This document shows, piece by piece, positions 3,397-16,285 of a DNA stretch of 64,000 nt. Numbering within the stretch: position 1 is the stretch's first letter; the number at the start of each line of letters is the position of its first letter. The position numbers were made by a program, and so were the translations under genes. This DNA is from Anaerolineae bacterium. GTDB lineage: Bacteria > Chloroflexota > Anaerolineae > UBA1429. The stretch lies in contig JAXGYO010000002.1 of NCBI GenBank assembly GCA_040772225.1, positions 1,725,762 to 1,789,761 of the forward strand. The letters are read 5' to 3'. Below the pieces are notes generated by a model. It searched no databases, was not told the origin of the DNA, and was given only the letters and a program-made list of their open reading frames with translations.

Positions 3397-4728
3397 CTAG
3401 AGTTTTGGCAGGTACCGGGCCAGCTCCCACTGGGTGACTTCCAGCCGATAGTCGTCCCATTCCTGCAGCTTGGCTGTGCGGTAGCGCTGGTAGATATGGG
3501 GACCCAGCGCCTCCTGCACGACCTCGTCCCGATCCATCTCCTCAACAGCCTCGCTTAACGATCCCGGCAAGGTCTTGAGCTTGCTGCGTGCCTCCATCGA
3601 TTCGAACAGATCCTCTTCACTCGCCTCGGGCAGCGGGAGCTCGCGCTTGATCCCATCCAGGCCACACTTGAGCATCACAGCAAAGGCCAGATACGGGTTG
3701 CAGCTCGGATCGGGACAACGCAGCTCCAGCCGGGTAGCAGCCGGGGCTGGCGCTCGCGGTACCCGAATTAACGCAGACCGGTTCACCCGTGCCCAGGAGA
3801 TGTACACAGGGGCCTCATAGCCGGGCACCAGACGCTTGTATGAGTTGACCAGGGGTGCGAGCACCGCCGCCATGCCTCTGGCATGCGCGAGCTGACCGGC
3901 GATAAAGTGCTTGGCCAGCTGCGAGAGACCGTACTTGTCGCCGCCATCGTAGAACATGTTGGTACCGGTACCGGTGTCGGCCAGACTCTGATGCACGTGC
4001 ATACCAGAGCCGTTGATACCCCGGATCGGTTTGGGCATAAAGGTCGCATAGACATTGTGCTGCTGGGCGATGGCCTTGAGCACATACTTGAAGGTGACCG
4101 CCGCATCAGCGGTGATCAGGGCATGTCCATACCGAAAGTCGATCTCATGCTGCCCATTGGCCACCTCGTGATGCCCGGCCTCCACATCGATGCCAAAGGG
4201 CTCCAGAGCCGTGATCATATCGTCGCGCACCAGTGCACCACGGTCTGCGGTCTGATCGAAATAGCCAGCCTCATCATGGGTGGCACCGGGGATAGGGGTG
4301 CCAGTCTCATCAGTCTCGAAAAGAAAGAACTCGAGCTCTGGTCCGACGCGATACTCGAATCCCATCTCTCGGGCTTCGGCCATCGCCTTGGATAGCATGG
4401 TACGGGGAGCACCGACGAATGTCTCGCCGTTGGGGGTAAAGACATCGCACACAAAACGCGCCGTCCCGTGGGTGCTGTTCAGCCAGGGGATGATCGCAAA
4501 GGTGCTCAGATCGGGGCGCAGGAACATGTCACTCTCGCTAATGCGCACAAAGCCCTGAATCGACGAGCCGTCGAACCAGACGCCGTTCTCCATCGCATTC
4601 TCGAGCTGGCTGACAGGCACGGTGATGGTCTTGACGTTCCCCATGATATCCGTGAACTGCAGGTTGATAAACCGGACCCCGTTGTCCCGAACCGCCTTGA
4701 TGATCGACTCCTGAGTATGAACAGCCAT
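3397..4728 (-). CDS. glnA: Glutamine synthetase type I
   Basis: 443 aa with conserved GSI blocks (NLQFTDIMG, GSSIQGF, MPKPIRGINGSGMHVHQS). Confidence 0.95.
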   Translation of the reverse strand: MAVHTQESIIKAVRDNGVRFINLQFTDIMGNVKTITVPVSQLENAMENGVWFDGSSIQGFVRISESDMFLRPDLSTFAIIPWLNSTHGTARFVCDVFTPNGETFVGAPRTMLSKAMAEAREMGFEYRVGPELEFFLFETDETGTPIPGATHDEAGYFDQTADRGALVRDDMITALEPFGIDVEAGHHEVANGQHEIDFRYGHALITADAAVTFKYVLKAIAQQHNVYATFMPKPIRGINGSGMHVHQSLADTGTGTNMFYDGGDKYGLSQLAKHFIAGQLAHARGMAAVLAPLVNSYKRLVPGYEAPVYISWARVNRSALIRVPRAPAPAATRLELRCPDPSCNPYLAFAVMLKCGLDGIKRELPLPEASEEDLFESMEARSKLKTLPGSLSEAVEEMDRDEVVQEALGPHIYQRYRTAKLQEWDDYRLEVTQWELARYLPKL

Positions 4729-4781
4729 GTACCCTCCTCTTCATATACCGAATCTAGGTCACAGGATAGAACACTGCGACG

Positions 4782-4841
4782 CTGTGCACATCGTGCACAG
4801 GTACTCAAGCGCGCGACCTGTCATTTGTGCATCTTGCACAA
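4782..4841. promoter_or_regulatory. Two palindromic candidate operators upstream of glnA
   Basis: CTGTGCAC-ATC-GTGCACAG (4782-4800) and TTGTGCA-TCT-TGCACAA (4825-4841). Both are perfect inverted repeats sharing a GTGCA/TGCAC core, 54-113 bp upstream of the glnA start. Confidence 0.35.
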
Positions 4842-4850
4842 GCGCCGTCG

Positions 4851-14540: not shown

Positions 14541-16049
14541 CTATAGCCCTGCGGCTCGGATGCCGAGGGTGTCCAGCTCAACCTGGTTCAGCCCGACGCC
14601 GCGCAGATGATCGCGGTTGCCCCGCAGACTCTCGATCGCGTTGACGCCCATGCCTCCCATCATCTCCTTGATCTCCAGGCTCCAGGCACGCAACAGGTTG
14701 GTGAGCCGTTGCGCCCCGATATCCGGGTTCAGCCGCTTGGTAAGGTAAGGGTCCTGTGTGGCGATACCCCAGTTGCACTTGCCCGTGTAGCAGTTCTGGC
14801 ACAGGTGGCAGCCCATCGAAACCAGGGCGGATGTCGCGATATAGACCGCGTCGGCGCCGAGGGCAATCGCCTTGACCACATCCGCGCTGCTGCGGATGCT
14901 GCCGGCAGCGACGAGCGAGGCGCGATGACGGATGCCCTCATCTCGCAACCGCTGGTCCACTGCTGCCAGAGCAAGCTCGATAGGGATGCCGACGTTGTTG
15001 CGCACCTGCGTCGGGGCGGCGCCTGTCCCGCCCCGCAGGCCATCGATGGCGACGATATCGGCGCCCGCTCGCACGATCCCGCTGGCGATGGGTGCGATGT
15101 TGTGAACCGCCGCTACCTTGACGCTGACCGGCTTTTCATAGCCGGTGGCCTCTTTGAGTGCATAGATGAGCTGGCGCAGGTCCTCGATCGAGTAGATGTC
15201 ATGATGGGGAGCCGGGGAGAGCGCATCGGTGCCCACCGGGATCATCCGCGTTGCGGAGATATCGGGGGTCACCTTCTCCCCAGGCAAGTGTCCACCAATA
15301 CCGGGCTTGGCCCCCTGCCCGATCTTGATCTCGAGCGCGGCGACGGCATTGAGATAGTCGAGATGCACGCCGAACCTTCCGGAGGCGACCTGAGCGATGG
15401 TGTTGCCACCGTAACCATAGAGCGCCGGATGGAGCCCGCCTTCACCAGTGTTATAGAACGTTCCCGCCTCCTGTGACGCCCGGGCAAGGGACTCGCAGGC
15501 GTTAAAGCTGATCGAGCCATAGGACATGGCCGAGAACATGATCGGGACCTCGAGCCGGAGCAGCGGCGCCAGTTGCGTCTCTGTGGGCTCTCCATCCGCA
15601 CCCCACTCCAGACGCTCCGGTTTGGCCCCCAGGTAGGTGACCAGCTCCATCGGCTCCCGCATGGGGTCGATCGATGGGTTGGTCACCTGGCTAGCGTTAA
15701 GCAGCATGTGGTCCCAGTACACGCGATAGGCTTGATCACAGCCCATACCCGTGAGGAGCATGCCGCCACTCTCAGCCTGCCGGTAGATGTTTCGGAGGGC
15801 CTGGTTCGACCAGTTGGCATGGGGCCGGAACTCGAGGGGATTCTGCCGCACCGTCAGGGCGTGAGTCGGGCAGAGCGTCACACACCTGTGGCAACCGACG
15901 CAATTCGCATCCTCGCTATAGACACAGTCGTCCTCGATGTCATAGACATGGACGTCGTTGGCACATTGCCGGACACACACCTGACAGGAGATGCACCGGC
16001 TTTGGTCGCGCTCGATGACAAAGGCGGGCGTCGTGTAGGAGAGCGCCAT
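14541..16049 (-). CDS. Glutamate synthase FMN-binding domain protein (GltB2-like) with N-terminal 4Fe-4S ferredoxin domain
   Basis: N-terminal Cys clusters, then GOGAT FMN/central-domain blocks (FSAMSYGSIS, GEGGLHP, GQGAKPG). Confidence 0.9.
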   Translation of the reverse strand: MALSYTTPAFVIERDQSRCISCQVCVRQCANDVHVYDIEDDCVYSEDANCVGCHRCVTLCPTHALTVRQNPLEFRPHANWSNQALRNIYRQAESGGMLLTGMGCDQAYRVYWDHMLLNASQVTNPSIDPMREPMELVTYLGAKPERLEWGADGEPTETQLAPLLRLEVPIMFSAMSYGSISFNACESLARASQEAGTFYNTGEGGLHPALYGYGGNTIAQVASGRFGVHLDYLNAVAALEIKIGQGAKPGIGGHLPGEKVTPDISATRMIPVGTDALSPAPHHDIYSIEDLRQLIYALKEATGYEKPVSVKVAAVHNIAPIASGIVRAGADIVAIDGLRGGTGAAPTQVRNNVGIPIELALAAVDQRLRDEGIRHRASLVAAGSIRSSADVVKAIALGADAVYIATSALVSMGCHLCQNCYTGKCNWGIATQDPYLTKRLNPDIGAQRLTNLLRAWSLEIKEMMGGMGVNAIESLRGNRDHLRGVGLNQVELDTLGIRAAGL

Positions 16050-16134
16050 GGCTTACCTCAACTGGAATAAAACCGCCGCCCCCTGAGGAGCGGCTTCGCT
16101 GCACGCGGTGGGTCATCAACATCGACCCGATCAC

Positions 16135-16153
16135 CTGTAGGCTTATCTTACAG
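16135..16153. promoter_or_regulatory. Palindrome upstream of split-GOGAT operon
   Basis: CTGTAGGCTTATCTTACAG (TGTA-N9-TACA), about 90 bp upstream of the gltB2-like start. A TGCAC-GCG-GTG partial half-site lies nearby. Confidence 0.2.
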
Positions 16154-16285
16154 GGACCGGTCCGGGGCCACATCGACCGAGTGGAGGATTTCGAGGATGC
16201 CGAACGGAGGATTTAGAGCGCCATATACAGCGAGAGCGGCCCTACCCACCGGGGTGGACCGCTCCAACGGTGCAGATGAAAAGCA

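Follow-up and report, generated by a model that had tools for sequence, protein, structure and literature searches.

The window analysed here is a 64-kb stretch of the genome of an Anaerolineae bacterium (Chloroflexota), with a G+C content of ~61%. Open reading frame (ORF) listing and Pfam scans of the window reveal nine co-oriented minus-strand genes from 16049 to 3397, which comprise a split glutamate synthase (GOGAT), carAB, a PucR-family regulator gene (pucR below) and the glutamine synthetase (GS) gene glnA. The spacer between the last two genes carries two palindromes, and these palindromes, their probable binder and its probable target are the subject of this report. Array junctions measure, in gene order, 9, -4, 8, -8, 44, -44, -20 and 122 bp. 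An earlier sequence-only reading of this stretch had described a co-oriented minus-strand array with short or overlapping junctions and a PucR-family regulator between carB and glnA. Pfam assignments for all nine genes bear out both statements, with junctions of -44 to +44 bp before the 122-bp glnA spacer and a regulator gene at 6368-4851 encoding PucR, GGDEF_2 and HTH_30 domains. The two perfect palindromes which that reading had reported before glnA are likewise exact at the coordinates listed here; both are unique in the window, with no match in 100 shuffles each, and relaxed motif searches of the window recovered no further good copy of either. The genes and features of the array are as follows.

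14541..16049, minus strand: gltB-type synthase domain protein (flavin mononucleotide, FMN, domain) with an N-terminal 2x[4Fe-4S] Fer4 ferredoxin domain, first gene of the operon (Pfam Glu_synthase, E=6e-140, and Fer4 families)
14067..14531, minus strand: 4Fe-4S dicluster electron-transfer protein (Pfam Fer4_11, Fer4_7)
12790..14070, minus strand: FAD/NAD(P)H pyridine-nucleotide-disulfide oxidoreductase with a Rubredoxin_C domain (Pfam Pyr_redox_2, E=5e-63)
11621..12781, minus strand: GOGAT glutaminase, class-II amidotransferase domain protein (Pfam GATase_2, E=5e-13)
10831..11628, minus strand: GOGAT C-terminal GXGXG domain protein (Pfam GXGXG, E=2e-29)
9554..10786, minus strand: carA, carbamoyl-phosphate synthase small (glutaminase) subunit (Pfam CPSase_sm_chain and GATase)
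6349..9597, minus strand: carB, carbamoyl-phosphate synthase large subunit (Pfam CPSase_L_D1, D2, D3 and MGS)
4851..6368, minus strand: PucR-family transcription regulator, 505 aa (Pfam HTH_30, PucR and GGDEF_2, all above cut-off)
4825..4841, no strand: distal palindrome TTGTGCA-N3-TGCACAA (in the window TTGTGCA-TCT-TGCACAA), 17 bp, exact, 9 nt past the pucR stop codon
4782..4800, no strand: proximal palindrome CTGTGCAC-ATC-GTGCACAG (minus-strand reading CTGTGCAC-GAT-GTGCACAG), exact
4763..4768, minus strand: putative glnA -10 box TATCCT, the TAnnnT box past the palindrome
3397..4728, minus strand: glnA, 443-aa type I glutamine synthetase, proposed as target gene (Pfam Gln-synt_C, E=9e-126)

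Orthologous loci were gathered from reference genomes and metagenomes through homologues of the regulator, and further loci through homologues of GOGAT; they are denoted by L numbers. We found ~85 orthologues of the regulator at 37-93% identity, and those with a named source are all labelled as Anaerolineae, Anaerolineales or Chloroflexi/Chloroflexota, the closest relatives in public data being uncultured Anaerolineales and Anaerolineae. The gene order carB-pucR-GS is kept in more than 30 Anaerolineae loci across the same range of regulator identity (37-93%), with an overlap or a tiny gap between carB and pucR. All 26 orthologous loci in which a separate GS gene lies downstream carry the distal palindrome, with 12-14 of its 14 arm positions matched, again at regulator identities of 37-93%. 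In most loci this palindrome lies 1-11 nt past the pucR stop codon; the distance is ~80-100 nt in L005 and L088, and the L002 lineage has the palindrome within an extended 3' end of pucR. The site is kept even next to a GS gene whose product is just 26-35% identical to that of the window (L086, L089, L092), and is missing exactly where the GS gene is fused to the operon or does not follow pucR (L091, L094, L004). In L091 (5480-5545), glnA comes 34 bp after pucR, preceded by a ribosome-binding site (RBS) only, with neither palindrome nor promoter, and the GS gene has apparently been absorbed into the operon. In L094 tRNA genes lie downstream of pucR, and in L004 pucR has no GS gene behind it. 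The sequence-only reading had proposed the presence of the palindromes in orthologous glnA leaders as a test; for the distal palindrome the outcome is favourable, since it occurs in every pucR-GS spacer with a separate GS promoter.

An anchored alignment of 18 non-redundant leaders shows information content above 1 bit only at the 14 arm positions of the distal palindrome and at the conserved A of the -10-like box, while all three loop positions vary freely. The arm variants T4>G, A14>C and G12>A break the pairing between the arms and are uncompensated, and no double compensatory changes were seen. With conserved arms, a free loop and uncompensated arm changes, the distal palindrome behaves as a DNA site and not as an RNA hairpin. 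Two side observations concern sequences of related form. A 12/14 match, TTGTGCAGGAAGGACAA, occurs in the window at 35210-35226, between a TATAAT box and the start codon of rpsO (S15); as ~0.2 such matches are expected per window, it is probably due to chance. On a Dehalococcoidales-labelled contig (L062 7640-7656, L102 5646-5662), a distant PucR-family gene is followed by a GS gene (38-39% identity), and the 3' end of the PucR-family gene carries a variant palindrome with the same 7-N3-7 layout, ATGGGCG-CAT-CGCCCAA.

The distribution of the distal motif extends far beyond the orthologues of this regulator. Non-orthologous PucR-family loci were retrieved through a pattern for the helix-turn-helix (HTH), and the recurring motif is carried by loci L011-L080, L099 and L106. 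The same 17-mer adjoins most of the non-orthologous PucR-family genes retrieved, from Bacillota, Pseudomonas/Ectopseudomonas, Betaproteobacteria and other Chloroflexota. In 1.03 Mb of sequence we count 52 sites that match at least 13 of 14 positions, against 0-1 in first-order Markov simulations. Among the spacers N0 to N12, N3 alone is enriched, with 26 perfect cores. Many of these loci show the succession of regulator gene, site and co-oriented operon seen in the window. The operons behind the sites encode, among others, an Asp/Glu racemase with DUF1177 and a peptide ABC transporter, dihydroxy-acid dehydratase, CoA ligase, M20 peptidase, amino-acid permeases and cytosine/purine permeases. 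The presence of the site also follows the recognition helix of the regulator: it is found in 65 of 90 loci with the HRNTLxYR helix against 1 of 15 with the variant helices HRQTL, HRNTVNYK, HLNTLKYR and HANTV (Fisher p = 2e-6, for loci that are phylogenetically dependent). The window regulator has the helix HRNTLNYR, which is common to other PucR-family members.

The position of the distal site relative to the promoter is equally regular. A TAnnnT box lies 54-56 nt past the last base of the palindrome in 20/20 orthologous leaders examined, and the non-orthologous sites display a TAnnnT peak at the same distance, +54 to +56 (20 of 58 site-sides, against a background of ~1.3 per offset). The shared 17-mer and the shared distance to the -10 box indicate that operator and spacing are properties of this branch of the PucR family. 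Regulators of the HRNTLxYR type appear to share a general operator and promoter grammar, which consists of TTGTGCA-N3-TGCACAA and a -10-like box at a distance of 54-56 nt. If confirmed, a single consensus with a fixed -10 distance would make regulons predictable for the orphan PucR regulators, a large family whose binding sites have been called diverse in recent literature (PMC13599513). A text search for PucR together with TTGTGC returned nothing relevant in the literature. In Escherichia coli K-12, the region between garP and garD, which belong to the CdaR-activated gar genes, holds no N3 palindrome. Three TTGTGCA/TGCACA(A) half-sites do occur in this intergenic region (L117), at 7036-7042, 7087-7092 and 7275-7282, and are suggestive at most with regard to CdaR.

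From the TAnnnT spacing and a transcription start ~7 nt further on, the centre of the distal palindrome (4833) is placed at about -77 of glnA. The RBS of glnA, GAGGAGGG, precedes the ATG at 4728. A promoter scan found no canonical sigma-70 -35/-10 pair in the pucR-glnA spacer, its sole promoter-like match lying inside glnA, and the -35 position is not conserved among the aligned leaders. The combination of a rigidly placed upstream site and a weak -35 suggests the layout of an activator-dependent promoter. The palindromes had been assigned to the glnA leader by the sequence-only reading. They do lie between pucR and glnA; relative to the putative glnA promoter, however, they are situated upstream (about -85 to -26) and would not be transcribed from it. 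The glnA leader proper would measure ~30 nt in the window, while those of other orthologues reach ~90-130 nt and contain conserved blocks. In the leaders of L003, L090 and L007 and of L008, L024 and L100 these are the blocks CCCCATGCRATCA..GCCGATTCRTGGTGGTC, or a hairpin GCCGCGGTAC-GAGG-GGTACCGCGGC followed by GTTGTTGTGG; an Rfam search of the long leaders matched no family.

The regulator was judged to belong to the PucR family by Pfam PF07905, PF17853 and PF13556. The HTH_30 domain at residues 442-500 scores 90.1 bits against a cut-off of 27, the N-terminal PucR domain 42.9 against 33.5, and the central GGDEF_2 domain 26.4 against 24.5, a marginal match. All NCBIfam equivalogs fall below their cut-offs (AdeR 80.4/700, CdaR 75.4/612, Rv1453 50.9/600, PmfR 34.2/800), and the protein represents a distinct, uncharacterised PucR subgroup. 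Its closest solved structure is Rv2242 (E = 5e-6). The arrangement typical of the family, an inverted-repeat operator that adjoins the regulator gene and lies upstream of the target promoter, is present at the locus. Since the regulator gene overlaps the carB stop codon by 20 bp, it is the last gene of the GOGAT/carAB operon.

The proximal palindrome is composed of the hexamer half-sites of the distal one at a wider spacing, TGTGCA-N5-TGCACA. The claim that the two palindromes share one core holds for the half-sites; the sites themselves are not equivalent, the distal N3 spacing being canonical and the proximal N5 spacing not. The self-complementarity of GTGCAC allows an equally valid reading of the proximal palindrome as a TGTGCAC direct repeat. 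It extends over about -44 to -26 and so overlaps the -35 region, and its centre and that of the distal palindrome are 42 bp, or four helical turns, apart. Of the window and 109 loci, three have perfect N5 cores, namely the window, L001 and L083. L110 (66% regulator identity) has the proximal 17-mer 25 nt past the distal site and 14 nt before the -10 box, in diverged flanks; its retention there indicates that the proximal site is under selection in the sub-clade formed by the window, L001, L083 and L110. The proximal palindrome is decayed in the L002 lineage, and several other lineages have instead one CTGTGCA half-site 17 nt past the distal palindrome. A second canonical site was considered and rejected, since no enrichment of the N5 spacing was seen elsewhere. 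The two-site GabR system described below offers an analogy, on which the proximal palindrome is read as a putative auxiliary site, probably bound by a second dimer of the same oligomer.

These observations make it probable that the 505-aa PucR-family protein is a dedicated regulator of the adjacent GS gene, probably an activator, which acts through the distal site. Gene content, motif, conservation, spacing and the family-wide association are all directly observed. The regulator would bind TTGTGCA-N3-TGCACAA at 4825-4841 through its C-terminal HTH_30 domain, as a dimer or a higher oligomer, and from ~77 bp before the glnA start, at a rigid spacing to the -10 box, it would activate glnA. Activation appears the most likely mode of action because the promoter has no usable -35 and the characterised members of the family, apart from the dual B. 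subtilis PucR, act purely as activators. A second dimer of the same oligomer would probably occupy the N5 palindrome over the -35 and tune the response, either through cooperativity or through repression once occupancy is high, and a ligand of the N-terminal PucR and GGDEF-like domains may modulate it. Co-transcription of the regulator with the glutamine consumers GOGAT and CarAB (and NadE in relatives) would couple GS expression to glutamine demand. The suggestion of the sequence-only reading that the adjacent PucR-type regulator binds at the palindromes is thus supported for the distal palindrome, by its conservation, the family motif and the helix correlation, and is plausible only for the proximal one. 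Its suggestion that the regulator serves nitrogen rather than purine metabolism is supported as well, the carB-pucR-GS synteny being kept across the class.

Several points weigh against this interpretation. The operator consensus is common to many PucR paralogues, and another paralogue elsewhere in the genome could bind it; a motif generic to the family names the family of the binder and not the individual paralogue. The motif scan of the host genome covers 64 kb, the window. The conservation counts given above include related lineages, which do not amount to independent events. The transcription start site of glnA is placed from a -10-like box, and binding and activation are deduced from sequence comparison. 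The N5 spacing of the proximal palindrome is non-canonical, and its position on the -35 region suits repression better than activation. The conserved centre of the proximal palindrome (CGATG) could also belong to the promoter itself or to another protein.

In a less likely alternative, the PucR-family protein binds the distal site and mainly represses or dually regulates glnA, looping or bridging between the palindromes at -77 and at the -35 and shutting GS off when glutamine is plentiful. Such a role would be akin to that of GlnR in the Bacillus glnRA operon. It would account for a proximal palindrome placed over the -35 (about -44 to -26), with its centre four helical turns (42 bp) from the distal centre and selected in the window's clade (with L001, L083 and L110), and B. 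subtilis PucR is known to activate as well as to repress (PMC7652997). Most orthologues, however, lack a full second site, with nothing beyond a half-site at about -51 to -45, and still have the distal site fixed at -77 in combination with a poor -35, which is a layout of the activator type; the same layout is found in other family members, which are described as activators in the literature. It is considerably less probable that the palindromes are bound by some other protein, a PucR paralogue or an unrelated global nitrogen regulator, and that the adjacent regulator controls something else. The generic nature of the operator consensus would allow for this, as would the outer TGT-N11-ACA frame that the proximal palindrome shares with 17-bp sites of the TnrA/GlnR type, and the GOGAT operon clearly relies on a different factor. 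The recurrence of regulator gene, site and target operon in many non-orthologous loci argues for the adjacent regulator, as do the joint retention of regulator, site and GS gene over 37-93% regulator identity and their joint loss, and the TnrA/GlnR and NtcA consensus sequences are unmatched.

The inference of an operator has also to be set against the view that the palindromes are RNA hairpins on read-through transcripts, acting as a terminator, a processing site or a stabiliser, for which the chance is very slight. The distal palindrome does lie 1-11 nt past the pucR stop codon in most loci, and both palindromes fold as hairpins in prediction. The terminator scan nevertheless gave no terminator-like sites in 4600-5000, neither palindrome is followed by a T-run, and the predicted fold is no better than that of shuffled sequences (z = -1.46). 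Rfam shows no match in 4700-4900 at E<=10, and for the whole window at gathering thresholds it returned two tRNAs only. The stem is conserved in sequence and not in pairing, as the uncompensated changes T4>G, A14>C and G12>A demonstrate, and the same sequence lies upstream of genes, or between divergent genes, in other PucR loci. A terminator or other RNA element was rejected on these grounds: Rfam, terminator scan, fold z-score and arm covariation.

The proposed regulation of glnA by a PucR-family protein through the distal site can be compared with several characterised systems. With one exception, B. subtilis PucR, which activates and represses, the characterised members of the family are all activators; the PutR site is a 17-bp inverted repeat, the AdeR site a 24-bp inverted repeat, and Corynebacterium glutamicum GabR binds as an octamer to two inverted repeats between -87 and -23 (PMC7652997; PMC13599513). 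B. subtilis PutR (PrcR), the activator of putBCP, resembles the window protein in family, in the 17-bp inverted repeat and in showing ligand-enhanced DNA binding (PMC7652997). It differs in its target, a catabolic proline-utilisation operon, and in its ligand, proline, and the window protein, which reaches no NCBIfam equivalog, is not an orthologue of PutR. The PutR site is reportedly TTGTGG-N5-CCACAA, whose TTGTG-N7-CACAA frame is also that of the distal palindrome. GabR, the activator of gabTDP, requires both of its inverted repeats (-87 to -23) for strong binding (PMC7652997), and the two palindromes of the window span a comparable region, about -85 to -26. GabR, on the other hand, has no GGDEF-like domain, binds 21-bp repeats of other sequence, is divergent from its target and serves the catabolism of gamma-aminobutyrate. 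B. subtilis AdeR and E. coli CdaR (SdaR), activators of amino-acid and diacid metabolism, are the best NCBIfam matches of the window protein, in its C-terminal half, although it remains far under their equivalog cut-offs (80/700 and 75/612).

In role, the closest parallels are GlnR/TnrA (MerR family, Bacillota) and NtcA (CRP family, cyanobacteria), which also act on palindromes of glnA promoters, and GlnR is likewise encoded immediately upstream of glnA; these regulators belong to other protein families and use other operators. The TnrA/GlnR consensus TGTNA-N7-TNACA has no match on either strand of 4729-4850, where the proximal palindrome shares the TGT-N11-ACA frame only, and the NtcA consensus GTA-N8-TAC, centred near -41.5, has no match in the 122-bp pucR-glnA spacer. 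The earlier statement that the palindromes fit neither consensus is therefore correct, and TnrA/GlnR, NtcA and CRP patterns were all rejected as explanations of the palindromes for want of a match in the spacer. Full-text literature searches retrieved no paper that links a PucR-family protein to glnA. To our knowledge, the way in which nitrogen assimilation is transcriptionally controlled has seen essentially no characterisation in Chloroflexota, and the locus points to a type of nitrogen-assimilation regulator without earlier description in this phylum. What is new here for a PucR-family regulator is the target glnA and the phylum; the family and the operator type were already known. The locus provides a concrete regulator, operator and target, with a site that is precise to the base pair and conserved across a class of abundant sludge and sediment bacteria.

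The promoter of the GOGAT operon carries regulatory elements of its own. We studied the 236 bp upstream of the first GOGAT gene, which contain the following features.

16206-16213, no strand: extra AATCCTCC box, 23 bp upstream of the GOGAT palindrome, seen in the window sequence
16172..16189, no strand: GOGAT-operon palindrome, family consensus ATCCTCCA-N2-TGGAGGAT; window copy ATCCTCCActcGGTCGAT, 13/16
16145..16150, minus strand: putative -10 box of the GOGAT-carAB-pucR operon, extended form TGTAAGAT at 16152-16145, read from the sequence
16066..16094, minus strand: terminator-like G+C-rich hairpin with a T-run in the operon leader (terminator scan: 8 pairs, 7 of them G-C)

In 10/10 GOGAT leaders the palindrome ATCCTCCA-N2-TGGAGGAT occurs with 13-16 of 16 positions matched and its centre at about -42, and a -10-like box, often TGn-extended, follows it at 18-21 nt. 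In the four leaders compared, the -10 box is exactly 32 nt from the proximal AATCCTCC box. Other matches to the palindrome in the window, at 40242 and 45718, fall inside long ORFs and look like chance. The leader hairpin lies ~25 nt before the gltB-like ATG, and with its T-run it ends 15-25 nt before the RBS. Its stem is kept in 7/7 aligned leaders, with compensatory changes in 4 of 10 pairs, and the region has no Rfam match even at E<=10; the hairpin is a candidate attenuator or new cis-regulatory leader. The palindrome looks like a class-II-type activator site for another factor, combined with a transcription attenuator. It differs from the PucR motif, and the elements of the GOGAT promoter are independent of the PucR site.

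The window's GOGAT promoter was also searched for a PucR site, but no copy was found and the idea was rejected. In L112, a 12/14 site of the PucR type, ATGTGCACAAAGCACAA, lies at 9903-9919, directly past the -10 box of the GOGAT promoter, and the GOGAT leaders of L111 and L114 contain TGTGCAC or GTGCAC half-sites at similar places. These sites possibly represent lineage-specific feedback of the regulator on its own operon. As a PucR-type site is found at the GOGAT promoter only in L112 (12/14), autoregulation would be lineage-specific at most.

Taken jointly, these features allow a wider and more tentative proposal, which we hold to be possible but somewhat short of an even chance. The nitrogen circuit of Anaerolineae would be unlike those of NtrC, GlnR/TnrA, actinobacterial GlnR/AmtR, NtcA and NrpR: a PucR-family regulator would exert feed-forward control on GS from -77, with supply following demand, the GOGAT operon would be governed by its own class-II-type palindrome and an attenuator or riboswitch, and the -77 grammar of PucR regulators would extend across phyla.

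The remaining genes of the array conform to known families. The product of glnA passes the TIGR00653 equivalog cut-off (511.9 bits against 429.15), which identifies it as a type I GS. The GATase_2, Glu_synthase (FMN) and GXGXG domains of GOGAT are encoded by separate ORFs in one cluster, a split (archaeal-type) organisation by Pfam. Separate ORFs for the GOGAT domains are known from Archaea (PMC8097209). The present system resembles the archaeal type in having glutaminase, FMN/synthase and GXGXG ORFs beside Fe-S and flavoprotein partners, and differs from it in being bacterial and in sharing one operon with carAB and the regulator, as well as with nadE in relatives. Homologues of the first GOGAT gene are plentiful in Anaerolineae at 76-98% identity, and the 4Fe-4S dicluster gene occupies the same position in L110-L121. 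The Pyr_redox_2 oxidoreductase, presumed to be the electron-input subunit of GOGAT, reaches no cut-off in the NCBIfam equivalog scan. The longest carB ORF begins 9 codons before the conserved N-terminus MPKRTDL (window 9570-9597), and judging from this motif the true start is probably codon 10 (MPKRTDL...), at 9570; the overlap of carA and carB is then probably 17 bp and not 44 bp.

L110-L114 and L118-L121 show the array in full, GOGAT through pucR, and the sequence of L115 ends inside carB. A gene for NAD synthase, nadE, lies between the GXGXG gene and carA in L112-L115 and L118-L121 (L112: 15229-16011) and is absent from the window; it adds a further enzyme of amide-nitrogen and ammonia metabolism to the same operon in these relatives. 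The operon of a BMP-family ABC transporter that the sequence-only reading had placed upstream of the array is indeed present in the window. Of the loci with a retrieved upstream flank, the near relative L110 alone shares this synteny, and the others have different neighbours. Elsewhere in the window, a DDE transposase gene (DUF772 and DDE_Tnp_1, 33404-34543) lies in a stretch of lower G+C content (0.58-0.59), next to a small glyoxalase-family gene and the rpsO-pnp genes.

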